A DNA stretch of 64,000 nucleotides from an uncultured virus (IMG/VR IMGVR_UViG_3300035668_000001) (IMGVR_UViG_3300035668_000001); one strand, 5' to 3'; positions 1,938 to 36,920 are shown, numbered from the stretch's first letter. The notes: generated from the sequence alone by a model not told the origin. Numbers and translations: made by a program.

Positions 1938-1947
1938 GGAGAAGCTC

Positions 1948-2979: not shown

Positions 2980-2980
2980 C

Positions 2981-4177: not shown

Positions 4178-4183
4178 CCCCCG

Positions 4184-17515: not shown

Positions 17516-19174
17516 ATGACGACCGCCACCGTCGAGCTGTACGCCGACATCCTCGCCCGCGCCGAAGACCACGCCGTCTGGCGGGTCCTCCGCCGACTCT
17601 TCTGGATGGTGTCCGACGACGGCACCCTCCACCGCCCACCCCGCAACGCCGAGCTCGCCGAACTGGCCGGGGTGTCCGCCCGATCCGTCACCCGTGCCCG
17701 CGCACTACTCCGCGAAACCGAAGGCGTCGAGTACATCCCCCACCACCGGTACGACCCGCCCCGATACCGGTTCCTCCGCCACCCGCAGGGTCGCCACGAG
17801 GGTCGCCGCCAGGGTCGCCACACACGCGCGTTCCAGGTTTTGAACGAGTGCAACGACCACATAGACGCGCTCGCGACCGACGTCGCACGCCGGCGGCGGG
17901 AAGCCGTTCCCGGCAGTCCGTGGAACGAGGCAGGGATCAGCGCCTGCCTTCGGCGCGCCGTCGCCCTTGGCGTCGGGCCCGAACGGCTCCGCCTCATCGC
18001 CTTCGACGCCGCCTCCGACCCCAACGTGAAGACCCCCGGCGTCATCGCCGCCGACGGATTCCGTCAACGTGTCACCCCCACCCCGCGCCACACCCCACCC
18101 CCGGCCAGTCCACCCGCCGGGCGCATCACCGCCGACGAGTTCGCCCGCCTCAAGCCCGCCGACCAAGCCCGACTCGTCCGCCTCGGCCTCGCCCCCGTTA
18201 CCTACGAGTCACCGGCGCCTGTGCCGGTGACCGATCGGGAACCGGGGGCGGCCGGGGACGGTAGTGCCAGTCCAGAGGTAGACCCGCGCGTGAGCGACCA
18301 CGCGCTACCCGATCTCGTGGAGGACCCGTGTATCCCGTCCCTGAGTGCGCCGCCCCCGGATCCCGGTGGTGGGACGCCGCTCGGCACGTCTGCGCCGTCG
18401 TGTCGTGCGCCTTCCGCGGGCGGCACGTCCCGGCCCCGTGCCAGTGCGCGCACCACACCGACACGCGCACGCTCGTCCAGGCCCCCACTTCCTGTGTCCG
18501 ATGCGGACGCCCGCTGCTCCGTCTCGTGCCGCAGTGATCAAGCGACGCGTCCCGCTCGAACGGGGCGCCGGCCCGGCCCGGAGGACGCCGTTGGCGGTGA
18601 CGTCGCCACTGCGCGCGCGGCCGATGCCCGCGTGTCGGGAGGATGGTTGCGCGCGCGCGGCGACGACACGGAAGCGTGGTCTGTGCGCGCGGCACGACCG
18701 GCCGGCGCGCGCAACGGTGCGCGTGACGGTGCGCACGGCGGTGCGCACGGCGGGGATCCCGGCGCCGATCCGCGCGCTCGTGCTGGTGCGCGCGGCCGGG
18801 CTGTGCGAGGGATGCGGCGGCCTGCTGGACGACACGGGCACACATCTGCATCACCGGATCCGGCGCCGCGACGGCGGGCACACCCTCGACAACCTGGTGG
18901 CGTTGCACCCGCTGTGTCACGTCCTGGGCCCGCTGGCCGTGCACGAGCGGACGAAGTGGGCGCGCGCGCGGGGGTTGACGGTGCGCGTGGCCGCCGACGT
19001 GTCAGCGGCGCCGCTGATCCTGCCGTCGGGGCAGGTCGTGTTGTTGGACTCGCACCGGCCGGTGTACATCGCCGCGGCGTGAAGGTCTCGATCACGGGAC
19101 GCCTCACGGGCATCCTGGGACGGTTCTGTGCGCTACGCGCGTCAGGGCAAGGACACCCCCCATTTAGGGTGTAG
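17516..19174 (+). CDS. HTH protein, possible replication initiator (true 3' end uncertain)
   Basis: NAELAELAGVSARSVTRARALL HTH; after about 18230 the frame is low complexity and overlaps two better genes. Confidence 0.5.
   Translation: MTTATVELYADILARAEDHAVWRVLRRLFWMVSDDGTLHRPPRNAELAELAGVSARSVTRARALLRETEGVEYIPHHRYDPPRYRFLRHPQGRHEGRRQGRHTRAFQVLNECNDHIDALATDVARRRREAVPGSPWNEAGISACLRRAVALGVGPERLRLIAFDAASDPNVKTPGVIAADGFRQRVTPTPRHTPPPASPPAGRITADEFARLKPADQARLVRLGLAPVTYESPAPVPVTDREPGAAGDGSASPEVDPRVSDHALPDLVEDPCIPSLSAPPPDPGGGTPLGTSAPSCRAPSAGGTSRPRASARTTPTRARSSRPPLPVSDADARCSVSCRSDQATRPARTGRRPGPEDAVGGDVATARAADARVSGGWLRARGDDTEAWSVRAARPAGARNGARDGAHGGAHGGDPGADPRARAGARGRAVRGMRRPAGRHGHTSASPDPAPRRRAHPRQPGGVAPAVSRPGPAGRARADEVGARAGVDGARGRRRVSGAADPAVGAGRVVGLAPAGVHRRGVKVSITGRLTGILGRFCALRASGQGHPPFRV
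17787..17819 (+). repeat. 3 x AGGGTCGCC direct repeat, 12-bp period
   Basis: Copies at 17787, 17799, 17811. Confidence 0.75.
18286..18305 (+). promoter_or_regulatory. AGCGAC-loop hairpin
   Basis: GCGCGTG-AGCGAC-CACGCGC, upstream of GGAGG RBS and GTG 18328. Confidence 0.65.
18328..18537 (+). CDS. Small Cys-rich protein
   Basis: GGAGG RBS, CQCAHH and CVRC motifs, GTGA overlap with HNH gene. Confidence 0.5.
   Translation: MYPVPECAAPGSRWWDAARHVCAVVSCAFRGRHVPAPCQCAHHTDTRTLVQAPTSCVRCGRPLLRLVPQ
18534..19082 (+). CDS. HNH endonuclease
   Basis: CEGCG...HLHHRIRRRDGGHTLDNLVALHPLCH. Confidence 0.8.
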   Translation: MIKRRVPLERGAGPARRTPLAVTSPLRARPMPACREDGCARAATTRKRGLCARHDRPARATVRVTVRTAVRTAGIPAPIRALVLVRAAGLCEGCGGLLDDTGTHLHHRIRRRDGGHTLDNLVALHPLCHVLGPLAVHERTKWARARGLTVRVAADVSAAPLILPSGQVVLLDSHRPVYIAAA

Positions 19175-19222
19175 TGTTCGGCGCGCTGCACTCCACGACT
19201 CACGTCCCCCCGGAGGGTTCCC

Positions 19223-19507
19223 GTGCGCATCTACACCGCAACCGAATGGGCCAGCTCCGTGTTGGCCGCACCCACTTCGCCTGGCTCAGGCCCCAGCTTC
19301 AACAAGGTCAACGACTGGCTCATCCACAACCCACTCATCACGGTCATGGTGGTCGTCGGCATCGCGATGGTGTGGAAGGCGCTCAGAGGGAAGATCGGCC
19401 AGGTATTGACCATCTTCTGCTGCGCCCTGATCGGGTTCACGTTCATCGGCGTCGGCTCCGGATGGATCGACATCACGCGGTCCTTCGCCGACCTGTTCCC
19501 GCGGTAG
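19223..19507 (+). CDS. Small 2-TM conjugation protein (pilin/VirB2/TcpD-like)
   Basis: GGAGG RBS; two TMs; first gene of the VirB4 operon. Confidence 0.5.
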   Translation: MRIYTATEWASSVLAAPTSPGSGPSFNKVNDWLIHNPLITVMVVVGIAMVWKALRGKIGQVLTIFCCALIGFTFIGVGSGWIDITRSFADLFPR

Positions 19508-19513
19508 TCCGCC

Positions 19514-19891
19514 GTGAGCCGCGTTCTCCGCTCGGATGACGGCATCTACCGGGCCGTGATGGAGTCCGTCTTCTTGGGCCCCGGCCGTCACGACTGGGCC
19601 CCAGTCCGTTACTCGACCGTCGGCGTCGGCATCGTGACGTACGCCTTGATCGTGCTCGCCGAGATCGCCCTGGCCGGCTTCCACTTCACCCACACCCCGT
19701 TTCCGGCAGAGGTCTTCGCGGCGGTCGTCGTCGCGAAGGCTTCCTCGAGGTACGTCGGTGTCGAGCGGATGCCCCACGTCGTGTTCGGTGACTTCATCTC
19801 CGAGCGTCGCCGCGGCGGCCGGCGGGCAGACCCCGCCTCCGAGGTCCACATCCGTGCCCGTATCCGCGTCCAGCCCCGGGAGCACCTGTGA
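19514..19891 (+). CDS. VirB3/TcpE-like membrane protein
   Basis: Two hydrophobic segments, coupled directly to VirB4 gene; positional inference. Confidence 0.5.
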   Translation: MSRVLRSDDGIYRAVMESVFLGPGRHDWAPVRYSTVGVGIVTYALIVLAEIALAGFHFTHTPFPAEVFAAVVVAKASSRYVGVERMPHVVFGDFISERRRGGRRADPASEVHIRARIRVQPREHL

Positions 19892-22608
19892 AGACTTCCA
19901 CCCGAACCAAGACCGACTCGCTCGCCCGGCGCCTCCCCGTCCTCGAGGCCGCAGTGAAGCCGGTGCCGGTGTGTGACCTGGCGCTGCGGGAGATCAGTGA
20001 CAACGTGGCGGTCACCAAGGACCGCGTAACGGCCTGGTTCACCCTGGCTGCGCAGCGGTGGGCGTGGCTGTCCGACGACACCCGGAAAGGTCTGCTGTCG
20101 GACACCGCATCGGCGTACGCCACCCTCGCCGGCCACTCGATCCACCTGCGGGTCACCGCGAAGCCGTACCCGGGGCGGGTGTGGGCGCAGCAGATCTTGG
20201 ACCGCACCCCGAACCCGCTGCCCAGTTTCGGTGACCGCGTCACGCGCACCCAGAACCTTCTCCTCGGCCAGTCGATGGCGGAGAAGGTCGTGTACTTGGG
20301 GATCGACATCGAACGCCGTGACTTCACGGGGAAGGCTGCCGCCGCGGTACGCGACTTGGCCAGTTCGCCCCGCGACTTCAAGGCGATCATCGCCTCGTAC
20401 GCGACGGGCGGGTCAGGCGACAGTGAGCTCCACCGCATCACCGTCGAGGCGCAGCGGATGGCCCGCAACCTCGCCTACCTGGGGGCGAAGGCGTGCACCC
20501 CGCAGGAAGTGGAGTGGCTGGTTCACCGGTCGGTCGGCCTCTCACTTCCCGCGCAACAGAACCCCTCCCCCACCCCGGGCGGGGCGCTGTCGGACATGGC
20601 CCAGTTCTCCGACGGGGTCGTGGCCGTCCGTGACCCGTTCGACGAGACGACGGAGCTGCGCCTCCGTAGCGCCCGCACCAAGGGCGGGAGGCCGGTGTCC
20701 AGGCACGTCGCCGTCCTCACTCTCGGGCCGAGCGACGCGGTCGACCCGCACAGCGGGCTCGAGCCGTGGATGGCGATCGCCGACCGGCTGCCGTTCACCG
20801 TCGAGTGGTACTCCCACCTCAACATCCTGTCGGGGCCGGTGGTGAAGAAGCGACTCGACCGTGTCCTCAGGTGGATCAATGGGCAGCGGGAACACTTCGC
20901 CGAGCACCCCAGCTACCACCCGCCGCGAAGCCTCCTCGACGCCGGCCAGCAGGCCCTCGACATCGAAGACGAGACGTACAAGAACGACCCCTCGATCGCG
21001 GCCCGCGGGTACGGCTGGCACTACCTGATGGTGTCGGGCAAGACCCGGGAGGAATGCCTGTCGAACGTCCAGGTCGCGCAGACGCTGTACATGAACGAGT
21101 TGAAGTGGACCCTCGTCCACCCGAAGAACCAGTACGCCCTGTATCGGTCCTTCATCCCGGGTGAACCCCTCGGGTCGAAGGCGCATCTGCGCCACTTCCC
21201 GCTCCGCATGGTCACCGCAGGTCTGCCGACGGTGACATCCGACATCGGGGACCGCCGTGGCGCCTACCTGGGAACGACTGCGGGGACCCGCCACGCGGTC
21301 CTCGTCGACCTCCTCAACGGCCCCGAGTACCTCGACGCGTCCGGGCTGTGGGCCTTCATCGGCGGGCTGGGTTCGGGCAAGAGCGGCCTGATCGGCAAGT
21401 TCGCGGCCTGGTACGTCGAGCGGCGGATCCCGGTCACGATCTTCGACCCCTCCGGGCCGCTGGCGAAACTGTGCGACCTGCCGTGGCTGCCCCCCGGCTC
21501 GGCGATGCACTTCGACCTGACGAAGGCCCCACCCGGCACCCTCAACCCCTACGGGGTCATCGCGGACCCGAGGAAGGAAAACTTCACCACGGACCCCGAC
21601 GTGTTGCGCGCCTGGGACAACGGGGAGCAGGCGAGGGCCCGGACGCTGGCGTTGCTGCGGCACGCGGAAGCCGTCGAGGAGACGGCCGCGGACCGGCGCC
21701 AACTGGTCCGGGACATCGTGTACATGCTGATCGACCCGGCGACGAAGAAGAACGAGTCCACGGCGGACGTCGTCGGTGACGCGATCGTCGCCGTCCCGGC
21801 CGTCAGCACCTCGACCCTGTGGGACCTCATCCGCGAGCTCGAGCGGCACGCGGACCCACACGGCCGGAAGATCGCGAACCAGCTCCGCGCCACGGCCGGG
21901 ATGCGCCTCACCCGCCTGTTCTTCCCACCCGAGCACGACGAGTTCGTGCAGGTTCCGATCGACGACCCGATCCTCCTCGTCATCACCATGCCCGGCCTGA
22001 CTCTGCCCCTCGAGGGCACGGACCCGGAACAGTGGACGGCGGAGGAGAGGGCGTCGGTGCCCGCCCTGCACCTCGCCGCGCACCTCGCGTCCCGCCGCGC
22101 CTACAACGAAAACCGGCTCAAGCCGAAGGTCGTCTTCTTCGACGAGGTTGGCCAGTTGGGTGAATGGGGGTCCGGCCGGGCGCTGTTCGTCCGCATGGGC
22201 CGCGACACCCGCAAGTGGACCCTCGCTGTGGGTGTCGCCGACCAGAACCCGGCGGGCATCATGCGCCTCGGGGACCAGGTCGGGAACCTCCTCGCCGGCG
22301 TGTTCGTGGGCCGCATCGGGGACGACGAGACGGCCTCGGCCGCCCTCAAGCTCCTCAACTCCCCCCGCGGCATCGGATACGAGCGGGTACTCCGCCGCCT
22401 GTCTCCGCCGTCCCCACCGGGATCGCGAGAGGACCGGCGCCGCAGCTACGTCCTTCGCATCGGGGAGAACGTGGAGAAGATCCACGTGACTTTCGACGTC
22501 GACCCCGACGTCCTCGCCGTCCTCCGGTCCGGCAAGGTCGGGTCCGAACCCGCCCCGGCCCCGGCCACGCCGGCGGAGACGAGCCTGTACGAGGAGGGCG
22601 TGGCGTGA
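19888..22608 (+). CDS. virB4: VirB4-like conjugative ATPase (TcpF/ConE type)
   Basis: 906 aa; Walker A GGLGSGKS, IFDPSG, Walker B VFFDEV, GRDTRKW...ADQNP. Confidence 0.85.
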   Translation: MKTSTRTKTDSLARRLPVLEAAVKPVPVCDLALREISDNVAVTKDRVTAWFTLAAQRWAWLSDDTRKGLLSDTASAYATLAGHSIHLRVTAKPYPGRVWAQQILDRTPNPLPSFGDRVTRTQNLLLGQSMAEKVVYLGIDIERRDFTGKAAAAVRDLASSPRDFKAIIASYATGGSGDSELHRITVEAQRMARNLAYLGAKACTPQEVEWLVHRSVGLSLPAQQNPSPTPGGALSDMAQFSDGVVAVRDPFDETTELRLRSARTKGGRPVSRHVAVLTLGPSDAVDPHSGLEPWMAIADRLPFTVEWYSHLNILSGPVVKKRLDRVLRWINGQREHFAEHPSYHPPRSLLDAGQQALDIEDETYKNDPSIAARGYGWHYLMVSGKTREECLSNVQVAQTLYMNELKWTLVHPKNQYALYRSFIPGEPLGSKAHLRHFPLRMVTAGLPTVTSDIGDRRGAYLGTTAGTRHAVLVDLLNGPEYLDASGLWAFIGGLGSGKSGLIGKFAAWYVERRIPVTIFDPSGPLAKLCDLPWLPPGSAMHFDLTKAPPGTLNPYGVIADPRKENFTTDPDVLRAWDNGEQARARTLALLRHAEAVEETAADRRQLVRDIVYMLIDPATKKNESTADVVGDAIVAVPAVSTSTLWDLIRELERHADPHGRKIANQLRATAGMRLTRLFFPPEHDEFVQVPIDDPILLVITMPGLTLPLEGTDPEQWTAEERASVPALHLAAHLASRRAYNENRLKPKVVFFDEVGQLGEWGSGRALFVRMGRDTRKWTLAVGVADQNPAGIMRLGDQVGNLLAGVFVGRIGDDETASAALKLLNSPRGIGYERVLRRLSPPSPPGSREDRRRSYVLRIGENVEKIHVTFDVDPDVLAVLRSGKVGSEPAPAPATPAETSLYEEGVA

Positions 22609-24935
22609 TCGCCCGGATCGCGTCGTACCTGCCGCGCCGTTTCAACGCCGACTGGCTGATCCGCACCCTCGTCCTGTCCGTCCTCGTCGGCGGCCTCCTC
22701 ACCCTCCCCGGCACCGTCGCGTACGCCTGGGACCTCAACCCTTGCGACCCGTCCGCGCCGGTCCCGTCGACCCCAGTCGACGCCCCGTTCGGGATGATCT
22801 TCCCCGTCCCGGACCACCCCCCGACCGGGGAGGCGTTCGGGGCGAACGCGACCACCACCCCGTTCGCGAAGTACGGGTGGGGCGGGTTGACGCTCGAAAC
22901 GTATGACCTCGGCTGCTCCGACCTGGGGGGGCGTGTCGGCGCGAACGCCGGAACTTACGAGGCCAACTTCCTCGGCTCCTTCGGCACCCTCGTCCTCGTC
23001 CTCACGACGGGGATGCTGATGCTGATCCTCGACCTCGCCACCTTCTGGCTGCACGCCTTCGACTCGGCTGTAGAGGGGGTGTTCGACGCCCTGTACCTGA
23101 GCCTGTTCCGGCCGTACGCCACGACCGCCATCATCCTCATCGGCGGCATCATCATCGCGCGGTCCATCTTCGGGTCGAACAAGACCCGGATGGACAAGGC
23201 GGTCACCACGTCCGGGTGGGCGCTGCTCGTCCTGACGGTCCTGGCGTTCCTGTCGGTCTTCCCCGTGGGGGCCGCGCAAGTCGCCGACAAAGTGGTGACG
23301 CAGGCGGTGACGTCGGGGTTCGTCGCGGTCAACGGGCAGCCCGAAACCGGCGGGACCATGACGGGGAAGGCCGCCGGCGCGATCCACTACTCGCTCGGCT
23401 ACCGGTACTGGATCGGTGCCGAGCTCGGCGACCCCAACTCGGCTGTCGCGAAGAAGTACGGCCCGGCCCTGTTCGACGCGCACACCTTGTCCTGGGACGA
23501 GTACAAGCGGTCTTCGGGGTTCAGTGACGGCGCTGAACGCCTGCGGATCATCAAAGCCAAGCAGAAGCAGTGGGACGACACCGCCGCGAAGATCAAGGCC
23601 GAGGACGAGATCGCGTACGGCGCCCTGACCGGCCGCAACGTCGACCAACGCCGATGGGGCGCGTTCGGCTACCTGTTGTCCAGCGTGGCCGTCGGCGCGT
23701 TCCTGTTCTTCGCCTGCTGCCTGATCGTGCTGTCGTACCTGCTGCGGCGCCTCGCCGTCATGCTGTCCCCCGGCATCGCCCTCGTCGGCATGTACTTCCC
23801 GAAGGTCGTGACGAAGGCCCTCGCCCTCTGCGCGGCCACGATCGTCAACACGATCGTGTTCGGGATGGCCGTCGCCGTGTACGTCCGCTGCGTCCCGACG
23901 ATCCTCGAGTCGATGCCGTACCCGCTGAGCATCATCCTGCTGGGTGCCTTCACCGTCGCTTTGTTCATGTTCCTGCGCCCGATCATGCACCTCCGAAACT
24001 TCGCCGGGCTCAAGAAGAGGCAGGACGTCATCGGGTCCGTCCTCGACGACATGAAGGATCTGTACGACAAGCTCAGGAACATGGCGTGGGAGGGCGCGAA
24101 GATCGCCGCGACCGCCGCCGCGACCGGCGGCGCGACCGCCACGGCGATGAGCTACGTCGAGAGCCAGAGGGTCCGGTACGAAGAAGGCACCGACACCGCC
24201 CTCCCACCCGGCGAAACCTTCCCCGTCCCGTACCCGGACCGTGACAACGATGAGCGCCCCAACCGGTACGTCCACAGCACGCGGGACGACGCCGGCCCGG
24301 CGATAGAGCCGGGTGTACCGGAGCGGACCCCCCGCCCACACCCGGGCAGGCACCCCGGCGGCGAGCTCCCGCCCGGTGCCGAAACCGAGCCTGCCGTCCA
24401 CCCGCCGCTCGCGTTGCCCGCCGGGTCGGAGCCGAGGCCAGGAGAAGCCGACGACCGGCACGGCCGCACGGACACGGCGACCCCGATCGTCGGGCAGGTC
24501 GTAGACGACGAGGTGCTGTACAAGCCGGGCGGGAACCCCGATCTGCGCCGCACCGACGACGACCCGGTGCCCCAAGTCATCGCGGAGCCGGAAGTCGACG
24601 ACGACGGCCGGGAGGTCTACGTGATCACCACGATGGACGGGGACGAGATCTACACGGTCCCCGACGGCGGCGATGACGACGAGTACGCGCTACCCGGCGC
24701 CGGGCTCACGTTCGCCCGGCAGGACGACGACGGCACCGTGTGGTCCGTCAGCCGCGGCGACGAACTACGCGGCACCGTCGAGCGGACCGACAAGGGCGGC
24801 TGGATCTCGAGGGACGTCCGCGGTATGCCCCGCGGCGTGGACATGTTCCGCGAGAACGCGGGCGGACGCCTCGACGCCGACGTCGACCGTGACCCGAACT
24901 TCCGGTTCACCGACTATCCCGAGGACTTGGCGTGA
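22605..24935 (+). CDS. VirB6/TcpH-like polytopic membrane protein with acidic Pro-rich tail
   Basis: Many TMs, YDLGC motif, follows VirB4 with GTGA overlap. Confidence 0.7.
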   Translation: MIARIASYLPRRFNADWLIRTLVLSVLVGGLLTLPGTVAYAWDLNPCDPSAPVPSTPVDAPFGMIFPVPDHPPTGEAFGANATTTPFAKYGWGGLTLETYDLGCSDLGGRVGANAGTYEANFLGSFGTLVLVLTTGMLMLILDLATFWLHAFDSAVEGVFDALYLSLFRPYATTAIILIGGIIIARSIFGSNKTRMDKAVTTSGWALLVLTVLAFLSVFPVGAAQVADKVVTQAVTSGFVAVNGQPETGGTMTGKAAGAIHYSLGYRYWIGAELGDPNSAVAKKYGPALFDAHTLSWDEYKRSSGFSDGAERLRIIKAKQKQWDDTAAKIKAEDEIAYGALTGRNVDQRRWGAFGYLLSSVAVGAFLFFACCLIVLSYLLRRLAVMLSPGIALVGMYFPKVVTKALALCAATIVNTIVFGMAVAVYVRCVPTILESMPYPLSIILLGAFTVALFMFLRPIMHLRNFAGLKKRQDVIGSVLDDMKDLYDKLRNMAWEGAKIAATAAATGGATATAMSYVESQRVRYEEGTDTALPPGETFPVPYPDRDNDERPNRYVHSTRDDAGPAIEPGVPERTPRPHPGRHPGGELPPGAETEPAVHPPLALPAGSEPRPGEADDRHGRTDTATPIVGQVVDDEVLYKPGGNPDLRRTDDDPVPQVIAEPEVDDDGREVYVITTMDGDEIYTVPDGGDDDEYALPGAGLTFARQDDDGTVWSVSRGDELRGTVERTDKGGWISRDVRGMPRGVDMFRENAGGRLDADVDRDPNFRFTDYPEDLA

Positions 24936-25495
24936 GGGCCTGGTGGCGGGCGGGCGCCAAGACCCGCTGGCGGGTCGCCGGGGCACTGTTCGTCTTGCTC
25001 GTCGCCGTCGCCGTGTTCTCCCGGCTCACCGGCGGACCCCCGCAGCCGGGCCGCGACCTGTCCCCCGCCGCCGCGCCGCCGGCGGCGCCTACGTCCGCCA
25101 CCGCGGCGCCGTCCCCGTCCCCGTCGGTACTCGAAAGGGACGTGCCGCCCGGGGCCACACCCGACCCGACTCTCGCCGAAGCCGCCGCCGCCGCCTTCAC
25201 CCGCGCCTGGGCCCGGCCGCCGGTCGGGGACGCGGCGTGGCTTCGGGGCATGACCCCGTACATGACCGCGCACCTCCGGGGCTTGTTCACCGGGGTCCGG
25301 CAGTCCGACATGCCGACGCGCAACTGCATCGGCGCTCCCCGCCCGGCGGGGGTGACCGGCGGTGCCGCGACGTTCCACTTCACCTGCCCCGGCGTCGGCG
25401 GTGAACCGGGACAGGCGACGGTGACGGTACTCGTCACCGCGACCGGGGGGTGGCGCGCCGACGAGGTCACGTGGGTGCCGGGCGGCATCAGGTGA
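24932..25495 (+). CDS. Bitopic conjugation protein (VirB8/TcpC-like)
   Basis: N-terminal TM, Pro linker, AAAFTRAW...GWRADEV domain; position in operon. Confidence 0.5.
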   Translation: MRAWWRAGAKTRWRVAGALFVLLVAVAVFSRLTGGPPQPGRDLSPAAAPPAAPTSATAAPSPSPSVLERDVPPGATPDPTLAEAAAAAFTRAWARPPVGDAAWLRGMTPYMTAHLRGLFTGVRQSDMPTRNCIGAPRPAGVTGGAATFHFTCPGVGGEPGQATVTVLVTATGGWRADEVTWVPGGIR

Positions 25496-26613
25496 AGCGG
25501 GGCCTCCTCGCCTCCGCGGTCGTCGCCGCGGCCGCGGTGGGCTTCTGCTTCTTGGGGCCGGTGGCGGCCGTGACGATGATGTTCAACGGCGGCATCGACC
25601 AGGCGGCGGCCGCCATAAGCTGCGGCGGCTCCACAAGCCCGGCCCCCGGCCGCATCCACGTCGGGAACCTCGACCAGGAGCAGATGGGGAACGCGACGAC
25701 GATCGTCCGGGTCGGCAAAAACTTCCCCGCCGGGGGCACCGTCGGCGGCCGGCCCGTGCCGCTGCCCGACCGGGCGTTTGTCGTCGCGATCGCCACCGCC
25801 ATGCAGGAATCGAAGATGCGGAACGTGGACTACGGCGACCGGGACTCCCTCGGCTTGTTCCAGCAGCGCCCCTCCCAAGGCTGGGGCACCCCGGCGCAAG
25901 TCCTGGACCCCGTCTACTCGTCCACCCAGTTCTACAAGCACCTCGTCAAAGTCCCCGGCTGGCAGCGGATGTCGATCAACGATGCGGCGCAGACGGTCCA
26001 ACGGTCCGCCACCCCGTCCGCGTACGCGGCGTGGGAGTCCTTGGCGTTCGCCGTCGTCGCGAAGCTCGCGGGCAGCAACGCCGCCGGGATCTCCCCCGCG
26101 TGTGCCCGGCCCGGCGCCGTGTCTTCCACCGGCTGGGTGTGGCCGGCGCGCGGCGGCATCGTGTCCGGCTTCCGGACCGCGGACCGTCCGGGCCACGACG
26201 GGACCGACATCGGAGCCCCGGCCGGGTCGGCGATCGTCGCCGCCGCCGCGGGCACCGTCACGGTCGTCGTCTGCAACGCCCACGGCGGTGGCGCCGCACA
26301 GAACGCGTGCGCCGCCCCCGGCGGCATGAGCGTGCAGGGATGCGGCTGGTACGTCGAAATCTCCCACGGCCTCGCCGACACGGCAGGCGGCCAGCGGAAC
26401 GCGGTCACCCGCTACTGCCACATGGTGACCCGGCCGGGCGTGGCCGTCGGGCAACGGGTCGCCGCCGGGGACCCGCTCGGGAATGTCGGGTCGACCGGCA
26501 ATTCGTCCGGGCCGCACCTCCATTTCGAGGTCCACCTCGGCGGGAACGATTCCGCGTCGGCCGTCGACCCTGCCGCGTGGATGCGCGAGCACGGCGTCAC
26601 CATCCCGACCTGA
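25492..26613 (+). CDS. Cell-wall hydrolase: lysozyme-like domain + M23 peptidase (VirB1/TcpG role)
   Basis: AIATAMQES...DSLGLFQQRPSQGWG; HDGTD, YCHM, GNSSGPHLHFEV. Confidence 0.85.
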   Translation: MKRGLLASAVVAAAAVGFCFLGPVAAVTMMFNGGIDQAAAAISCGGSTSPAPGRIHVGNLDQEQMGNATTIVRVGKNFPAGGTVGGRPVPLPDRAFVVAIATAMQESKMRNVDYGDRDSLGLFQQRPSQGWGTPAQVLDPVYSSTQFYKHLVKVPGWQRMSINDAAQTVQRSATPSAYAAWESLAFAVVAKLAGSNAAGISPACARPGAVSSTGWVWPARGGIVSGFRTADRPGHDGTDIGAPAGSAIVAAAAGTVTVVVCNAHGGGAAQNACAAPGGMSVQGCGWYVEISHGLADTAGGQRNAVTRYCHMVTRPGVAVGQRVAAGDPLGNVGSTGNSSGPHLHFEVHLGGNDSASAVDPAAWMREHGVTIPT

Positions 26614-26646
26614 CCTCGCGCCTACCGCCGAAGGAGGCACGACGAC

Positions 26647-27198
26647 GTGACGACTCCCTCCCCCGCGCGCGCCTCCACCACTGCGCACGTGATGCACAGA
26701 TACGGTGGCGCGGTGCCAAGCCTCTACGAAGCGGCGTGCGTTGCCGCGCAGCGCGTGACCGAACTCCGAAACGACCGCAAGGATGCGCTACGCGCGCGCG
26801 ACGACGTGATCCTCGCTCTGTATGAAGGGACGCGCGGACCCGAGCTCGACTGCCGCCCGCACGGCCGGACCCCCCTCTACATTGCGCGCGCGCTCGGAAT
26901 GGCCAAGTCCACGGTATGGCTGGCGATCCGAACGGCCGCCGATACGGACGCGCGCCCGTTCTCCGGTCGAGCACTGGACGAATTGGAAGACCTCGCGCGC
27001 GCGGCAACCAAGCGTCTCGAGCACGTGCGTGCGCGCGAGGCGGCCGCGTTGGTCGTGCGCGACGACGCGATCCTCGCCTTGTACGAGTCGGGAACGCGCC
27101 CACACGCGATCGCGCGTGACCTCGGGATGGGCAAGACGCCGGTGCGGCAAGCGATCCGCACGGCGGCCGCGCGCCGCGCCGCCGCCCCCCCCTCCTGA
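26647..27198 (+). CDS. Protein with two tandem HTH-like repeats
   Basis: AAGGAGG RBS; RDD(V/A)ILALYE...IAR(A/D)LGM.K..V..AIRTAA occurs twice. Confidence 0.65.
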   Translation: MTTPSPARASTTAHVMHRYGGAVPSLYEAACVAAQRVTELRNDRKDALRARDDVILALYEGTRGPELDCRPHGRTPLYIARALGMAKSTVWLAIRTAADTDARPFSGRALDELEDLARAATKRLEHVRAREAAALVVRDDAILALYESGTRPHAIARDLGMGKTPVRQAIRTAAARRAAAPPS

Positions 27199-27203
27199 TC
27201 CAC

Positions 27204-27220
27204 TAAACCTAGTGTATAGT
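27204..27220 (+). promoter_or_regulatory. Conserved promoter
   Basis: TAAACCTAGTG-TATAGT; hairpin 27230-27248 and AGCGAC at 27276 downstream. Confidence 0.65.
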
Positions 27221-27305
27221 TCGGGCGGGGTGGGCGATCTTCGCCCACTGCTACTGCCGCCCCCGACGCGTCAAGAGCGACCGCGACGAGAGAGGACAAA
27301 TCCCG

Positions 27306-28475
27306 ATGAGTCAGTTGACAGAGTCCATCCGGTGGCGGTTCGAGCGCCAGCCGACCGGCGGGCAGTCCGACGACGTCGAACTGCCCGGAAACTTCGGCGA
27401 GCCAACCGAAAGTGAAGCCCGCAACGACATGCCACTGGCGCCGACCCTGTTGGCCACGAAGCCAGTCCCCGTGCCGGCGGTGATCCGGCGCCCCCCGTCC
27501 CCGGCGAAAGTCACCGGCGAGCCCGAAACGCGCTGGGTGGACAAAGCACTCGACGCCGGATCCACACTCGGCATCACTGCGCTGATCGGCGTCGGATTCA
27601 CCGTCAGCTACAACACGCTGCGGAACGCCGCACTCGACGCCGGATTCTCGGAGTTCCTCGCCCCTGCCGTCCCACTGTCCTTCGACGTCGGGATCATCAC
27701 CCTGTCCCTCAAGGTTTACCGGCTGGCCCGGGAAGGCCGTACCGCTCCGATCCTCCGAGCGATCATCATCGCCCTGTCGATCGCGACCGTCGTCGCGAAT
27801 GCCGCCGCCGGCGACACCCTCGCTTCCCGGATCCTGCACGGTATCCCCTCGGCGATGTTCGTCATCTGTTTCGAGTCCATGATCGTGTCTGCGCGGCGGC
27901 ACGCGTTGCAGCGAATGGGCCTTGTCCCGCCCGCGCTGCCGCGCGTCCGACCGATCCGGTGGGTACTCGCCCCGAAGGCCACCGGTGGCGAGTGGAAGAG
28001 GATGGTCCTCGCGCAGAACGACGCGCACACCCGGCGCGTCGAAGACCTCGAGTACCTGCTCGCCGAGTACGAGGCGTACGAGACGCACGCGCGCCTCGAG
28101 GAGGCGCGCGCGGAAGCCGCGCGGGAAGCTGACCGGGAGCGGGCGCGGGCCGCGCGCGAGGCCGCGCGCGCGGCAAACCAGGGCACGCCCGCCGCGCATC
28201 CCGCGCACGACGCCGACCCGATGCGCGCGCCCGCCGTGCGCGCGGGCGCGGACGACGGGGTCGACCTGTCTCGGTGGACCGACCTGATGCGCGAGGCGTA
28301 CCCGACGTACGCGCGGCTGCGCGACGAGGGCCAGCGGTGCGCGGGCGTGGACGTCCACAGGGCGTCACAGACGACTGCGTCCGAGTCGCAGGTGCGTCGG
28401 TGGATGAACCCCTTCGCCGCCCGGTACGACACCGAAGCCCGGGAGAGGGACGCCGGGGAGCTGCGGGTCGTGTAG
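27306..28475 (+). CDS. DUF2637-family membrane protein (actinomycete mobile elements)
   Basis: GFTVSYNTLR...AVPLSFDVGII, four TMs, RWVLAP motif. Confidence 0.7.
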   Translation: MSQLTESIRWRFERQPTGGQSDDVELPGNFGEPTESEARNDMPLAPTLLATKPVPVPAVIRRPPSPAKVTGEPETRWVDKALDAGSTLGITALIGVGFTVSYNTLRNAALDAGFSEFLAPAVPLSFDVGIITLSLKVYRLAREGRTAPILRAIIIALSIATVVANAAAGDTLASRILHGIPSAMFVICFESMIVSARRHALQRMGLVPPALPRVRPIRWVLAPKATGGEWKRMVLAQNDAHTRRVEDLEYLLAEYEAYETHARLEEARAEAAREADRERARAAREAARAANQGTPAAHPAHDADPMRAPAVRAGADDGVDLSRWTDLMREAYPTYARLRDEGQRCAGVDVHRASQTTASESQVRRWMNPFAARYDTEARERDAGELRVV

Positions 28476-28496
28476 GGCGCCCCGCGGGCGCACAGA

Positions 28497-28533
28497 GAAG
28501 CGGGCCCCACCCGCGCCGGGTGGGGGCCGCTTC
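28497..28533. terminator. Hairpin terminator between convergent genes
   Basis: GAAGCGG.CCCCACCC / GGGTGGGG.CCGCTTC inverted repeat. Confidence 0.6.
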
Positions 28534-28623
28534 CGTGTGTGGGCTGGGTGCTCACCTCCTCTGGTTGTTCTGATGGGCGGGGGGCCACCTTCCCCTTGCG
28601 GCCCCCCGCCCCCCTTTCGGGTG

Positions 28624-28815
28624 TTACACCTTCGGAGGGACCGGGGCTGAGGTCCAGCCCTTCCCGATGGGGATGAGGTAGGCGACGGTTACGCCGTCCA
28701 CCTTCGCGACCATGATCCCCGTGTGGGGGAATCGACGGGCCGGTTCGATCATGTACTCGACGCCGTCGAGAACGACCGTCTTGTGCGCCTTGTGGGCCTG
28801 AGCCGTGGTCGCCAT
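28624..28815 (-). CDS. Hypothetical protein
   Basis: GGGAGG RBS and conserved promoter upstream. Confidence 0.65.
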   Translation of the reverse strand: MATTAQAHKAHKTVVLDGVEYMIEPARRFPHTGIMVAKVDGVTVAYLIPIGKGWTSAPVPPKV

Positions 28816-28837
28816 CGGTCTGCCCTCCCGGGGGGTG

Positions 28838-28895
28838 TTGTCGGTGTCGCTCCCGACAAACCCAAACTATACACGGGGTTTACCACACAGGTCAA
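28838..28895 (-). promoter_or_regulatory. Conserved promoter + AGCGAC hairpin (minus strand)
   Basis: TTGACC-N18-TATAGT with TAAACCCCGTG; TTGTCGG-gAGCGACa-CCGACAA. Confidence 0.8.
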
Positions 28896-28964
28896 CGGTA
28901 CCGCCGAAGAATCGCCGAAGCGTGCCAGTGGTCGGGCGTCGGATCCACGCGCTACCGTGGCCGC

Positions 28965-29270
28965 ATGTCCACCCCCCTCTTGCGCCCCCCGACCCGTGAG
29001 CCGCGCCCCGCGGCCGAGGTCGCCGTGGCCGGAGGGCGCCTCCTCGGCCGACGGTGCATCCTTCCCGGCGTCCCCGCCGGAAGCTGGCAATACGACCGCC
29101 GAATCTTCTCCGAGCCGTTCATCCCGGCAGGTCAGAGGGCGCGCTGGGTGCGGGTCGTCACCGAGGCCGCGTACCACGCCTACGCGAACCCGGTCCCGGG
29201 CGAGGAGCCGACCCCGCCGGCGGACCACCAGGTGACCGACTTCCCCCTGTCCCTCGTCTGGCTCGAGTAA
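28965..29270 (+). CDS. Hypothetical protein
   Basis: ORF followed by strong terminator. Confidence 0.55.
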   Translation: MSTPLLRPPTREPRPAAEVAVAGGRLLGRRCILPGVPAGSWQYDRRIFSEPFIPAGQRARWVRVVTEAAYHAYANPVPGEEPTPPADHQVTDFPLSLVWLE

Positions 29271-29288
29271 CCTCCCCGGCTCAACACG

Positions 29289-29330
29289 AAAGGCCCCCGG
29301 TCGGACAGTCGACCGGGGGCCTTTTCCTTT
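29289..29330 (+). terminator. Intrinsic terminator
   Basis: 15-bp perfect IR AAAGGCCCCCGGTCG/CGACCGGGGGCCTTT with T-rich tail. Confidence 0.85.
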
Positions 29331-30196
29331 CGACGTGGCGAAGAGGCGAGAAAGAGAGGGGGCAGCGGGCGGGGGCACACTGGCCGCCGCTGGCGGCACC
29401 CTGCGGCCGCGGGCCAACGGTGTGATCCTGGCGCACCGGGAGGGCTGAGGGGCGCCGTGCCGGTGGCCCGACCCGGCGGGTCACGGCCTTCCTGCCTACT
29501 CCGAAGCGCTCAATCCCGTGTGTACTATGCCCCGCCCGGCTAGGGGTCCCCCGAGCCCGCGGCCTGGCGGCCTTGCCTCGGGGCGATCCTATCCGACGTG
29601 TCAAGTGTCCACCGCATTGACCTCTCCGGTAAAGGGAGGAGTCTGCTCCCCGTCGCCCGATCCCCCGCCCCGTCACGCCACAGCCGCCGGAGCCCCGGGG
29701 AGCTCGCCGTGCCCGCCGCCTGGGGTGCCGGGGCAGCGTTCCGCAGCCCACGGCGGGGTGGGGTGCAGGGTGCCGCACCCTGTACGCTCATGGTGTGCCC
29801 GACTTCCGCGAGGTACCAGTCTGGAAACCCGACGCACCGGCCGGCACGTGCCGCCACTGCGGGGAGCGCTGCTATCCCGCGTTCAACTACCACGCCGCGT
29901 GTGAGGCCGCGTACGAAGAGAAGCGGGACTACCGCAAGCACACGCCTGGCCCGAAGCGGTGCATCGACGGGGGTCACGGCCTCGGCCCTTGCTCGAAGTT
30001 CCGGGTGGGGCCGATCGTCCCCCCCAGCGAGGACGACCTCGAGTCGGACCACGACACGGCCCTGGCCGCCGGGGGGTCACACCGCCGCACTTGCTGGCGA
30101 TGCCCCCGGCACCACCAGATCAAGACCACCACCGACACCCGGGCGCTCAACGCCCGCCAGGGGGCCCGCGCCGGGCGCGCGCCCGAGGAGGCACCG

Positions 30197-32191
30197 ATGG
30201 CACAGAGGAAGCGGACGCCCGCGATCGACTGGCGCGTGCTCACCGTCGGCGCGGCGCTGCTCGCGTGCGCCGGGATCGGGTACTGGAAAGGGCAGGGGTT
30301 CCTGATCGGCGTGCTCGGCGCGTGCGCGGTCCTCGGCGTGCTCGGGTACGTCGGCCGGATCCGCGTGCGCGCGTGCGACGCGGCGCTCGTGCGCGCGCAC
30401 GGCATCATCGGCGCGGAGATGCGCGTGCCCGCCGTCACCCTCGAGCTGCGCGCGCACGCGTGGGACTACATCGGCCCGTTCTTCGACCCGATCGCCCCGT
30501 TGCCCGTGCGCGCCAATTACGGCCCCGACTTCGCCGACGACAATCCGGCCGCGCGCGCGTCGGTCGAAAAGGCGCTCAGCCGGAAATTCGGTGTGCCGGT
30601 CGCCGGGGACTGGGACCCGCCCCGGGACACCGTCCTGTTCCATCGCGCACGCGGGCACGTCGGAACGTTGACCCCGCCGCCGGCGGGCGACGAGTTGGCG
30701 GCACCGGACCCCCAGCACGCGCGCATCGTCCAAACCCTCCACGCCGCCCTGAGGGAATTCGTCGGGCCGAAAGGGGACCTCTTCGTCACTGTCGTCGGCT
30801 CCGACAACGACGGCGCACCGGATCGGCTTCGCGTCGCCTACCCGGCGGGATTCAAGGACCACATCGACGACAAGCGGGCGGAGTTCTTGGACATCGCCAA
30901 CTCCAAGCTCGACGGCCGGTGGGCCGCGGTCTCGTGGAACACGCGGGACAACGTCGTAGACCTCTCCCGCAGGCCGGACATGCCGACGTTCATCCCTCAC
31001 CCCGGCTTCGCGCCCGGTCGCCCCTGGCACAGGCTGTCCCTCGGTCCCGACGGGCACGGAAAGGAGCGGGGGCTCGACGTCACCATCGTCCCGCACACCC
31101 TCGTCACCGGCACCACTCTGTCCGGGAAGACGGCGACGATGCGGGCACTCGCGTGTGCTGTCACCGCGGGTAGAGCCGAGGCGACACTCGTGGACCCGAA
31201 GCGGGTCGAGTTCCAGGGCTTCCGCAACTGGCCAGGGGTGCGCGTGGTCGCTTCCAACCCGTCGGACATGATCGAGGCCATCGACGGGGTATGGAAGGAG
31301 ATGGATCGCCGCTACCGCGAATTCGACAACAGGCAGGTCCCACTGTCCTCCCACACCCCCTGGTTCCTCATCGTCGACGAGTTCGAGGAGTTGGTCAGCC
31401 TCCTCAACGGCATGCACTACGGGAAGGGCACCACCCACCCGACGATCCGGAATGCGCACAGCATCGCCCGCCTCGGCCGCCTCGCCCTCGTGTACCTCGT
31501 CGTCGGAACCCAGCGAGCGGACGCCGACTGGTTCAAAGGCGCGTTCCGGGACAACCTCCAGAACCGGATCGGCGTCGGACCCCTCGGTCGGGACGCCGCC
31601 CGCATGGCGTTCGACGACTCGTCTGTCGGGCGTGACGTCCCGGCTAACACCAAAGGCCGGGAAAATGTGCTGAACGGGGAGTCGCGGGACGCGTTCGAGG
31701 TCCAGAACTATTGGGTGCCGCGGCCTGGCGACGAAGACAACACGGCGTCTGACATCGCGATCCTCGACCGGCTGCGTGCCGCCGCGGCAGCGGCCCACCC
31801 CGGCTGGGGCGGGAAGCCGGACATCGTGGAACTTGACCCGGAACCGGAGCTGGAACCGGCCGAAGTCCGGGAAAAGCTGTCCCCTCCCCCACGGCCTGTG
31901 CTCCGCGAGCCGCGGCGGGCACTGACCGTCGTCCCGGGATCCGGCGGCGACGAAGACGAAGACGACGACGATGACCCGGACGCGGCGGGCATTCTTGGGT
32001 CTGTCCGCGCCGCCGAACTCGCCCCGCAGGACAGGATCATCCTCGGTGACGACGGACGTGAGCGGGTCATCGACCACATCCGCACCGCCGACGATCCCGA
32101 CTTCGTGGTCATCACCTGGCATCGGCCGCGGCTGCGGCGCGAGCCGCCGGTGACGGTCGCTGCCGAAAAGATGTTCCTCAGAGCCCCTTGA
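30197..32191 (+). CDS. FtsK/SpoIIIE-family ATPase (TraB/TcpA-like translocase or coupling protein)
   Basis: GAGGAGG RBS; 2 N-terminal TMs; HTLVTGTTLSGKT, VDPKRVEF, EMDRRY, LIVDEFEE, GTQR; frame is open upstream to 29795. Confidence 0.85.
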   Translation: MAQRKRTPAIDWRVLTVGAALLACAGIGYWKGQGFLIGVLGACAVLGVLGYVGRIRVRACDAALVRAHGIIGAEMRVPAVTLELRAHAWDYIGPFFDPIAPLPVRANYGPDFADDNPAARASVEKALSRKFGVPVAGDWDPPRDTVLFHRARGHVGTLTPPPAGDELAAPDPQHARIVQTLHAALREFVGPKGDLFVTVVGSDNDGAPDRLRVAYPAGFKDHIDDKRAEFLDIANSKLDGRWAAVSWNTRDNVVDLSRRPDMPTFIPHPGFAPGRPWHRLSLGPDGHGKERGLDVTIVPHTLVTGTTLSGKTATMRALACAVTAGRAEATLVDPKRVEFQGFRNWPGVRVVASNPSDMIEAIDGVWKEMDRRYREFDNRQVPLSSHTPWFLIVDEFEELVSLLNGMHYGKGTTHPTIRNAHSIARLGRLALVYLVVGTQRADADWFKGAFRDNLQNRIGVGPLGRDAARMAFDDSSVGRDVPANTKGRENVLNGESRDAFEVQNYWVPRPGDEDNTASDIAILDRLRAAAAAAHPGWGGKPDIVELDPEPELEPAEVREKLSPPPRPVLREPRRALTVVPGSGGDEDEDDDDDPDAAGILGSVRAAELAPQDRIILGDDGRERVIDHIRTADDPDFVVITWHRPRLRREPPVTVAAEKMFLRAP

Positions 32192-32470: not shown

Positions 32471-32516
32471 TAAACCCCGTGTACACTTCGAGTGAAGGCG
32501 GAACAGCGACACCGCC
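32471..32516 (+). promoter_or_regulatory. Conserved promoter + AGCGAC hairpin
   Basis: TAAACCCCGTG-TACACT; GGCGG-aacAGCGACa-CCGCC. Confidence 0.75.
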
Positions 32517-32540
32517 ACCGCGCCGATCGAGGAGGACACG

Positions 32541-32879: not shown

Positions 32880-32891
32880 TCCTTCTCCGAG

Positions 32892-33894: not shown

Positions 33895-33896
33895 GG

Positions 33897-36065: not shown

Positions 36066-36920
36066 ATGAGGGGCAACACGCACTTCATCACAGGGGTCAC
36101 CCTGTGGCTCGCCGCCACCCCCGCGGTCGACCTTGTCCACCGGCAGACACCGGCAGAGGTCGTCCTCTACGCGGTCGCGCTCGGCGGCACGGCGATGGTG
36201 TCCGACCTGGATCACCAGTCGTCGACGATCGCCTACACGTTCGGGTGGCGCACGTCCCGCCTGTGGCCGACCCGGCTCCGCTGGATGTCCGGGGGACCGA
36301 CCCGCATCTTGGCCCGCCTCGTCGGCCGGATCTTCGCCGGGCCCCGGAACGCGAAAGGGACCCGGCCCGGGCACCGATGGGGCACGCACTCGCTCCCGTT
36401 CGCGGTCGGCCTCGGCTTCCTCGTCCAGCTCGGCGTAGTCGCCGGGGCCGGGTGGACGGCCGCCGCCGCGGTCCTCGCCCTCGGCTTGGGTCTTGCCACG
36501 GTGGGGGAGAGGTGGGTCCCGAAGAAGCTGGGGGAGGGATGGGTGTCCTCCGCCGCCGTGTTCTGCATCGCCTGGGTGGCCGCGGTCCAGATCGGCTCGG
36601 CGTACGGCGTCGACTGGCGGTTCATCGGCCTCGTGTACGGCCTCGGGGTCATCGCCCACTGCCTCGGCGACTGGTGCACCCCGGAAGGGGTGCCGTGGTT
36701 CTGGCCGTTCAGCATGCGCCGGTTCGTGCTCGCCGAGGTCACGTTCACGTTCCGCGGCAAAGAACGGACCCTCAACTTGGCCTCCACCGGCGGGAAGCGG
36801 GAGACGGTGATCGCCGTGCTCCTGTCCATCACCGCAACCCTGCTCGCGGTCTGGCGCCTCGACTTGGGGCCGTCCGCCGAGTACCTGATCGCCGCGCTCG
36901 AATCCTTCGGCCGCGGCTAG
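36066..36920 (+). CDS. Membrane-bound metal-dependent hydrolase (YdjM family)
   Basis: GNTH, SDLDH, HRWGTHSL, HCLGDWCTPEGVPWFWP. Confidence 0.85.
   Translation: MRGNTHFITGVTLWLAATPAVDLVHRQTPAEVVLYAVALGGTAMVSDLDHQSSTIAYTFGWRTSRLWPTRLRWMSGGPTRILARLVGRIFAGPRNAKGTRPGHRWGTHSLPFAVGLGFLVQLGVVAGAGWTAAAAVLALGLGLATVGERWVPKKLGEGWVSSAAVFCIAWVAAVQIGSAYGVDWRFIGLVYGLGVIAHCLGDWCTPEGVPWFWPFSMRRFVLAEVTFTFRGKERTLNLASTGGKRETVIAVLLSITATLLAVWRLDLGPSAEYLIAALESFGRG

Follow-up and report, generated by a model that had tools for sequence, protein, structure and literature searches.

The stretch analysed here, hereafter the window, comprises 64 kb (64,000 nucleotides) of an uncultured virus (IMG/VR IMGVR_UViG_3300035668_000001), in which the G+C content is 69-73% (0.69-0.73) all along and the plus strand holds nearly all genes. 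At 19223-32191 it carries a module that frame analysis of the G+C content at third codon positions (GC3), together with translations, resolves into nine plus-strand genes and one minus-strand gene. This module is a Gram-positive-type core of a type IV secretion system (T4SS), with the signature parts present except a relaxase. We regard it as very probable that this T4SS-type module is real and resident in the genome of a tailed, probably temperate actinophage, and that other phages share the combination.

The operon, on the plus strand unless otherwise stated, opens with a gene for a 94-amino-acid (aa) protein (19223..19507), recognised by its GC3 frame signal and bearing transmembrane (TM) segments at 32-50 and 61-79; it had no family match in Pfam, PHROGs or NCBIfam, and a small open reading frame (ORF) occupies the same position in related loci. 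In the VirB3 position follows a small membrane protein of 125 aa (19514..19891) with a hydrophobic segment at 31-59 and a stop codon overlapping the VirB4 start, for which no Pfam match was obtained and whose nearest Atlas clusters (score 0.91-0.92) are weak leads, PrgI being found on 15% and TcpE on 14% of members. The third gene (19888..22608) encodes a 906-aa ATPase of the VirB4 family (Pfam AAA_10, 2.9e-16) with intact Walker A (GGLGSGKS, residue 492) and Walker B (VVFFDE, residue 748) motifs. Its NCBIfam matches to TcpF (5.4e-6) and VirB4_plasma (5e-4) both lie below the curated cut-offs, and a profile of 16 homologues had a sole match in the PDB, the VirB4 ATPase domain structure 4AG5 (1.1e-6). 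Downstream lies a VirB6-like polytopic membrane protein of 776 aa (22605..24935) with about seven TM segments and an acidic C-terminal tail, whose true start is 22605 and not that of a longer ORF from 22164. This protein has its homologue in the gene that follows VirB4 on plasmids and in phages, matches the CD3337/EF1877 mobilome membrane protein of NCBIfam at 1.5e-4, below cut-off, and gives a weak signal in the Atlas, where TrbL occurs on 11-18% of the members of its clusters (score 0.94).

The next protein is bitopic, of 187 aa (24932..25495), with one N-terminal TM helix, a linker and, in the model, an NTF2-like domain. Its AlphaFold2 model, based on a 36-sequence alignment, reached a mean predicted local distance difference test score (pLDDT) of 81.5, mostly above 90 in the C-terminal domain. 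When the top 1000 Foldseek chains were ranked by VIA-align, TraM of pIP501 came first (Z 12.3, root-mean-square deviation 2.4 Å, 104 residues), followed by DotI, VirB8, CagV, TrwG, TcpC and PrgL, with VirB8-family chains dominating the top 20. Since NTF2 is a common fold, the protein is called VirB8-like by its modelled fold together with its context. The operon continues with a secreted or anchored peptidoglycan hydrolase, a VirB1 analogue (25450..26613), which combines an N-terminal hydrophobic segment, a muramidase domain (residues 59-203 match PDB 8B2H/8B2E at 2.6e-9 and 3.8e-9) and an M23 endopeptidase domain (Pfam M23, 4.2e-19, as well as M23 structures in the PDB).

Beyond the hydrolase lie a 183-aa protein with two internal helix-turn-helix (HTH)-like repeats seen in the translation (26647..27198; weak HTH_29 match, 0.0074) and a 389-aa DUF2637 membrane protein with three TM segments (27306..28475; Pfam 1.9e-24), whose gene is followed by a terminator-like hairpin (28491..28539; 23-nt arms, 87% complementary). 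A 63-aa gene on the minus strand (28624..28815; GC3 signal) has its own copy of the phage promoter-like motif described below, and a 101-aa protein of no assigned function (28965..29270; ORF call and translation) has a perfect 15-nt hairpin 3' of its gene at 29289-29324. The module closes with a membrane-anchored ATPase of the FtsK/SpoIIIE type (29795..32191; Pfam FtsK_SpoIIIE, 6e-12), a candidate coupling protein or DNA pump that matches FtsK 2IUU in the PDB (2.4e-8) and phrog_1358 (7.7e-25), with Walker A at 439, Walker B at 524 and one or two TM segments, including one at 168-186. The start of this gene is uncertain, the database gene call beginning at residue 135. The first 134 residues (29795-30196) are Cys/His-rich and have a strong GC3 coding signal; no homologue of this N-terminus was found in the fetched loci or among the screened proteins, bar the window's own protein. 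An HNH-like fold considered for it was dropped, there being no Pfam match and no homologue.

The gene order and coordinates of the operon in the initial annotation were thus borne out by GC3, translations and domain searches, and its gene list is correct because domain, fold and motif evidence agrees gene by gene. This includes its call of a VirB4 with intact Walker motifs, for which a failure to match VirB4 profiles had been named as the check: the TcpF and VirB4_plasma matches are sub-threshold, and the homologue profile points to 4AG5 only. Its assignment to the Tcp/Tn916 class is supported in part, by the Gram-positive T4SS core and the TraM-like fold; the TcpF match is below cut-off. The Gram-positive minimal T4SSs (pIP501 Tra, pCW3 Tcp, Tn916, pCF10 Prg, ICEBs1; class MPF-FATA) share with the window a VirB1-like hydrolase, VirB4 and a VirB8-like NTF2 protein. 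The 125-aa and 776-aa proteins are candidate counterparts of their VirB3-like and VirB6-like components, and the window's FtsK-type ATPase of their FtsK-like coupling ATPase, as in TcpA. The window differs from these systems in that no relaxase or oriT was found, its matches to Firmicutes families fall below the curated cut-offs and its module is phage-borne.

A promoter-like motif is common to the module and its surroundings. The composite motif TAAACNNNNTGTAYRNT occurs in the window at 15 sites against 0.01 expected (7935, 27204, 28866 on the minus strand, 32471, 32966, 33276, 35512, 42581, 44659, 45147, 46441, 48031, 49233, 50500 and 55035). It coincides in part with a sigma-70-like -35/-10 pair, and in most cases a hairpin comes after it. 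Two of these sites lie in the module, one ahead of the DUF2637 gene and the other ahead of the minus-strand gene; one site is to the left of the module and twelve are to its right. Of the exact form TAAACCCC, 10 copies were counted where 0.36 would be expected: one on the minus strand, at 28875, and nine spread between 32471 and 49233. The promoter of the 63-aa minus-strand gene, TTGACC-18-TATAGT at 28895-28866, includes TAAACCCC. The plus-strand copy upstream of the DUF2637 gene (27204..27220, TAAACCTAGTGTATAGT) fits the composite pattern as a variant, TAAACCTA plus GTGTATAGT, and the one copy in the left flank (7935, TAAACGCC) likewise departs from the exact form. The motif is not present immediately ahead of the VirB4 operon. 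A promoter inside the module and on both flanks had been proposed, which holds for the composite motif with its 15 sites so placed, whereas the copies at 27204 and 7935 are variants and not exact. By itself, GGAGCGAC is not enriched (7 sites against 8.09 expected). We also noted that the motif form TAAAC(C/G)(C/G)C-N-TGTAY..T overlaps the -10 box and is then usually followed by a short hairpin with AGCGAC in its loop or stem. Standing ahead of many small genes at 32-50 kb, the motif may define one temporal gene class.

The module is resident in the phage genome and is not a fresh insertion of an integrative and conjugative element (ICE). Tetranucleotide correlations of the module with five other window segments were 0.962-0.980, and those of the segments among themselves 0.960-0.977. 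No integrase was found among the 79 window ORFs scanned with Pfam (the PHROGs scan covered the same set), no tRNA in the window, and no convincing att-like direct repeats bracketing the module, only imperfect, chance-like repeats across 13.5-38 kb; the uniform composition and these negatives agree with the residency, without integrase or att boundary, that the initial annotation had described. Furthermore, in read-derived contigs of one soil run, depth was even (9.4-15.7 in all 30 bins over 14500-34400), and single contig pieces span both borders without differences, 17028-21571 over 19223 and 30989-32951 over 32191. Because this run is the probable source sample, its coverage is not independent evidence. 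It is the sole sequencing run listed as containing the stretch, and no RNA data set is listed with it. The alternative joints listed in the read check had sides of 20-22 letters only, were flagged as unreliable and were not used.

The same combination was recovered from other phages. In IMG/VR, 5 of 65 pattern matches were confirmed, which correspond to four distinct loci with a VirB4 relative (G001-G004), and each of the four records also has a VirB6-like protein, a hydrolase and an FtsK-like protein. The whole records, scanned by PHROGs (72 and 77 proteins), are tailed-phage genomes with TerL, portal, capsid and tail genes, three of sipho-type and one of myo-type, and tyrosine integrases are present in all four. 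G002 (85.7 kb, CheckV 97%) encodes TerL, portal, capsid/protease, major tail protein, tape measure protein (TMP) and Dit; G003 (163 kb, CheckV 100%) TerL, portal, protease, major capsid, adaptor, major tail protein, chaperone, TMP and fibre; G004 (69.7 kb, called provirus) TerL, portal, scaffold, capsid, terminator, major tail protein, TMP and Dit; and G001 (85.3 kb, called provirus, myovirus type) TerL, portal, scaffold, capsid, sheath, tube and baseplate. A homologue of the window's Dit is present in three of the four, and BLASTP counted 11, 11, 10 and 5 proteins shared with the window for G002, G003, G004 and G001, respectively; in the first three these include Dit, minor tail proteins, DUF5131 and the SNF2 helicase. 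In G001 and G003 the module is embedded between phage genes. FtsK alpha and motor domains were recognised in the motors of G002-G004, and in that of G002 a gamma (DNA-recognition) domain as well; this is the predicted architecture of double-strand DNA pumps. The module locus of G002 also has DUF2637 and YdjM.

Other features of these records deserve mention in their own right. In the G001 record (L020:10969-16339 and L021) the module lies in a myovirus-type provirus where three tandem lipase/esterase-like genes adjoin the tail genes; a Cas1-like gene (PF01867, 3e-15) stands near a tyrosine integrase at the end of the G002 record (L013:4360-5361, record positions 84360-85361); and the 163-kb G003 record encodes a Tad2-like (anti-Thoeris) domain protein (L187:3135-3875).

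Deposited phages were searched as well. The window's VirB4 had no tblastn match (1e-5) in 50,697 deposited phage records, which agrees with the earlier remark that phages rarely encode VirB4 systems, and for the G002 VirB4 the matches were confined to 3 records, each of them Streptococcus or Enterococcus. When the module was compared with phages by megablast there was no match, and with 1-19000 as query there were only short stretches in the methylase and DUF5131 genes. By these similarity searches, modules of this kind are essentially absent from deposited phages, and none is apparent in deposited actinophages. A close relative of the phage, sought in IMG/VR via the SNF2 helicase, was not found, the best match having 46% identity and nothing else in common. 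Likewise, the literature searched (supplementary files not covered) yielded no account of an actinophage with a T4SS module; the available text of a phage-plasmid survey (preprint) indicates that phages were screened there with CONJscan.

The window is probably part of a large temperate tailed phage (contig about 140 kb) of a high-GC soil actinomycete host. Its VirB4 sits on a database contig of 140,409 bp, about 76 kb of which lie beyond the window. The tail (TMP, Dit, minor tail) and LysM lysin genes that the initial annotation had placed on the same sequence were all found by Pfam/PHROGs. At the left end, on the plus strand, are the C-terminus of the TMP (1-1077), an SPP1-type Dit (1059-1937) and minor tail proteins up to 4177, within a tail-gene context of 1..5456. 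A short minus-strand block follows (about 4.2-7.9 kb; weak HTH_23 match, 0.0059), and between it and an HNH endonuclease gene lie an exonuclease, a Gp3-like recombination directionality factor (RDF), DUF5131, a C5 methylase and the SNF2 helicase (Pfam/PHROGs). The HNH gene (18699..19079, plus strand; Pfam HNH 2.3e-6, 28.1 bits against a 21.4-bit cut-off) is directly upstream of the operon. In this region a 552-aa ORF with a winged-helix-like N-terminus (17516-19174) has a GC3 coding signal that fades near 18250 and shifts to another frame (18345-19082) encoding the HNH nuclease (PF01844); the frame change may reflect overlapping genes, a frameshift or an assembly error.

To the right of the module there are many small genes, YdjM, ParB_N/DUF6610, QueC/QueD/QueE/FolE, TerS-like, LysM endolysin and SSB genes. 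The YdjM-family membrane hydrolase (36066..36920, plus strand; Pfam) adjoins the module in G002 too, according to the annotation of that locus and BLASTP. The interval 37518-42572 holds the ParB_N-like/DUF6610 protein (37518-39011; Pfam/PHROGs), then QueC, QueD, a radical-SAM QueE-like protein and GTP cyclohydrolase I, a set that we take to be a 7-deazaguanine pathway such as phages employ in modifying DNA. The LysM endolysin is at 53406-55001 (Pfam/PHROGs). Tail, lysis and TerS-like genes are therefore present, and no capsid, portal or TerL gene was found within the 64-kb window by Pfam and PHROGs. The proposal that the element is a phage-plasmid is not supported: neither Rep nor ParA was found among the 79 ORFs, only the ParB_N-like/DUF6610 protein and the Gp3-like RDF, and all four relatives carry tyrosine integrases.

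Outside phages, relatives of the module occur on plasmids. The window's VirB4 matches 97 plasmids at no more than 35% identity, belonging to Rhodococcus (62), Prescottella (12), Paenibacillus (7), Streptomyces (6) and others (10). We compared the modules of the Nonomuraea sp. NBC_00507 linear plasmid NZ_CP107854, Streptomyces pSSFR2 NZ_CP009804, the Streptomyces sp. 891-h plasmid NZ_CP050694 and Rhodococcus/Prescottella plasmids. Like the window, these actinobacterial modules have two small proteins, a VirB4-like protein (30-35% identity to the window's over more than 90% of its length), a membrane protein of 600-870 aa, a protein of about 180 aa and a wall hydrolase, and in the Nonomuraea and Streptomyces plasmids an FtsK/SpoIIIE protein and DUF2637 are also near the module. 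Five window proteins (VirB4, VirB6-like, hydrolase, DUF2637 and FtsK-like) are homologous to the actinobacterial plasmid module in the same order. The differences concern the C-terminal domain of the hydrolase, which is M23 in the window and C40/NlpC-P60 in the plasmids, the host element, which is a tailed phage here, and the sequences, which are very divergent, with long branches. One VirB4 homologue, P0004, has 1181 aa and contains a LAGLIDADG intein domain (PF14528).

Relatives are likewise found in chromosomes. VirB4 relatives at 35-41% identity were present in 297 of 404 candidate stretches from metagenomes and, in species-representative genomes, in at least 590 of the 600 stretches listed, the best 80 being kept in each case. 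The four chromosomal loci that were annotated (74 proteins) have the core operon, consisting of two small proteins, VirB4, a VirB6-like protein, a protein of about 175 aa and a hydrolase, among housekeeping genes, namely dnaX, tadA and upp in Kineosporia and folK and folP in Longispora. FolP was encoded within 10 kb of the operon in 55 loci (16 of them named Micromonosporaceae), and Upp plus TadA near it in 9, of which 6 were Kineosporiaceae. The conserved chromosomal operon (L153:8358-16034, L110:9196-16661, L176:8680-16136, L146:9307-16210 and about 70 further loci), shared by several actinomycete families, lacks a relaxase, and in most cases no FtsK-like gene is close to it; in Nocardioides ungokensis a second, divergent T4SS-like cluster (L146:304-6282; TrbL/VirB6, AAA_10, M23, DUF6112, EccE-like) stands beside the first.

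VirB4 trees were built with FastTree for 158 sequences (10 of 168 were dropped, being shorter than 780 aa) and with IQ-TREE for 69. In both, chromosomal copies group by host family on short branches, and mobile copies have long branches in at least three places, their long-branch placement being uncertain: the window stands with four metagenome proteins, G002-G004 are sister to a Micromonosporaceae/Glycomycetaceae clade, G001 is sister to the Kineosporiaceae clade, and the plasmids are apart. Because the operon is also a conserved chromosomal locus, the core machine alone is not a marker of mobile elements. An FtsK-like gene accompanied the operon in 18 of 68 loci of at least 18 kb from chromosomes or metagenomes, against four of four viral loci, the window and two of three plasmid loci (BLAST); DUF2637 was near it in none of those 68 and, by BLAST, in two of the four viral loci (L003 and L005, that is, G002 and G004). 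What marks phage and plasmid copies is that the core is paired with an FtsK-type motor and, in the window, G002 and G004, with DUF2637 too.

As to function, we hold, tentatively and with slightly more doubt than belief, that the phage-borne module moves phage DNA through a T4SS-type channel, probably independently of a relaxase, to a neighbouring cell or compartment. In a lysogen or infected cell, the hydrolase would open the peptidoglycan locally, VirB4, VirB6 and VirB8 would build an envelope channel, and the FtsK-type motor would feed phage DNA through it into an adjoining cell or hyphal compartment. The DNA would be moved without a relaxase, as in the actinomycete TraB double-strand route, which is probable because no relaxase is present, and the outcome would be a virion-independent spread of the phage beside infection. 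In this scheme the substrate (phage DNA), the direction of transfer and the independence of a relaxase are what we infer. Streptomyces TraB-type systems, whether of an actinomycete ICE (AICE) or a plasmid, resemble the window in having a membrane FtsK-family motor and needing no relaxase, and differ from it in that a clt-like 8-bp repeat array was not seen near the window's motor gene. According to the part of the source available, TraB systems need no VirB4 channel (PMC9513070). On the mycobacterial plasmid pRAW, a virB4-like gene is essential for conjugation, and pRAW-type plasmids, as described, resemble the window in being actinobacterial and in having VirB4-like and TcpC/VirB8-like proteins together with a coupling ATPase, for which the window has a candidate; unlike the window, pRAW depends on an ESX type VII system and has a gene for a TraA relaxase (PMC4173767). 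This relation is distant, no Mycobacterium plasmid being among the organism names tallied for the 97 plasmid matches.

A broader form of this reading holds that several temperate tailed actinophage lineages, of sipho- and myo-type, are dual-route elements, spreading as virions and by a relaxase-independent, conjugation-like transfer of double-stranded DNA in which an FtsK-type pump works via a VirB4/VirB6/VirB8 channel; we consider this rather unlikely. If true, it would represent a hybrid of two actinomycete conjugation modes. To our knowledge, such hybrid transfer, with an FtsK pump and a VirB4 channel, has been described for no element.

Several observations weigh against DNA transfer by the module. 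No relaxase family was found among the 79 window ORFs (Pfam) or the 27 checked with NCBIfam, searches that a relaxase of a novel type could escape, and no oriT in the window. In the four relatives, six-frame searches for TrwC, Relaxase and Rep_trans found none in any, with positive controls that worked, and no relaxase domain was present among their 92 larger proteins. No clt-like 8-bp repeat array was found in 28400-32600, near the motor gene, the recognition sequence of the motor not being known. The VirB4, VirB6-like and VirB3-like assignments are sub-threshold sequence matches combined with fold and position, and some 76 kb of the contig, the part expected to contain the capsid genes and an integrase if there is one, are outside the window. 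In G002 and G004 the module is at the contig start, on the strand opposite to the structural genes, and since this is a contig edge it could lie outside the true prophage. Of the 97 plasmids with a VirB4 relative, 61 are typed as non-mobilizable and 36 as mobilizable. SPP1 is a virulent phage. Its gp31, gp31.1, gp31.2 and gp32 are described, in the available text, as a phage-borne, non-essential membrane-protein cassette with a VirB4/TrwB/FtsK-like ATPase for which a translocon was proposed, and Bacillus phages such as SPP1 have such an ATPase cassette of no established function; unlike the window, a VirB6-like protein, a VirB8-like protein and a hydrolase are not mentioned in that text (PMC6316719). 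Finally, since the same operon is chromosomal beside housekeeping genes, the presence of VirB4 alone does not imply conjugation, and a non-conjugative role is possible because of the chromosomal synteny (folP/folK, upp/tadA) and of a VirB4 tree that tracks host family.

One alternative keeps the machine and changes its target: phage DNA would not leave the organism but would be moved through hyphal cross-walls or, at sporulation, through septa into spores, so that the phage would fill all compartments or persist in spores with no separate recipient. FtsK/SpoIIIE-type motors do pump DNA across septa, phages that infect spore-formers often have FtsK-like genes (matches in 257 phage records, 166 of them Bacillus and 52 Mycobacterium), and many of the families with the chromosomal operon, among them Micromonosporaceae, Kineosporiaceae and Glycomycetaceae, are mycelial or sporulating actinomycetes. 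However, the largely non-mycelial Nocardioidaceae carry the operon too, and septal pumping by SpoIIIE needs neither a wall hydrolase nor a full VirB6/VirB8 channel. We consider this alternative unlikely.

Another alternative is that the module moves no DNA and serves protein secretion or envelope remodelling (superinfection exclusion, competition with neighbours or help in lysis), with the FtsK-like ATPase as substrate receptor. In its favour are the lack of a relaxase in the window and its four relatives and the chromosomal copies beside housekeeping genes with an FtsK-like gene near only 18 of 68, and T4SSs repurposed for protein delivery are on record, as a review states (PMC12857230). On phages and plasmids, however, the core is consistently accompanied by an FtsK-type DNA-translocase homologue, which in G002-G004 has FtsK alpha and motor domains and in G002 also gamma, and no candidate effector genes were recognised; we regard this alternative as distinctly unlikely.

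A different kind of doubt concerns the origin of the arrangement, namely that the module does not belong to the phage but is an ICE or plasmid in its own right, nested within a prophage or attached to one (as a phage-ICE tandem or fusion). Such objects are documented, in the available texts, as Streptococcus phage-ICE tandems (PMC13651849) and as the Escherichia coli conjugative phage-plasmid p1002-1, which arose from fusion (SegMantX preprint); like the window, they join phage and conjugation functions on one transferable unit. They are, in those texts, recent fusions or accretions of separate elements with relaxases, whereas the window's module is tied into phage regulation, lacks a relaxase and recurs in divergent phages. 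The edge position of the module in G002 and G004, opposite in strand to the structural genes, is compatible with nesting. Against it, the window shows neither an integrase nor att-like repeats, a tRNA or a break in composition, the module includes copies of the promoter-like motif of the phage itself, and phage genes flank the module on either side in the window, G001 and G003. Nesting is in our view highly improbable. An assembly chimera of a phage contig with a plasmid or ICE contig, conceivable for a metagenome assembly from a single soil run with no independent sample containing the stretch, is hardly credible given the even depth over 14500-34400, the single pieces across both borders without differences, a promoter-like motif common to both sides of the borders and the same combination in four independent records.

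Phages and conjugative elements are usually seen as separate routes of gene flow, and a recurrent, regulated T4SS core in phages of soil actinomycetes would blur this line. If phage DNA were moved in this way, receptor barriers would be bypassed and hyphal compartments crossed, and classifiers that decide between virus and plasmid would mislabel such hybrids. Moreover, the consistent lack of a relaxase together with an FtsK-type motor offers a testable link between two DNA-transfer mechanisms of actinomycetes, and, given the copies of the operon in chromosomes, one may ask which role this machine has in ordinary cells.

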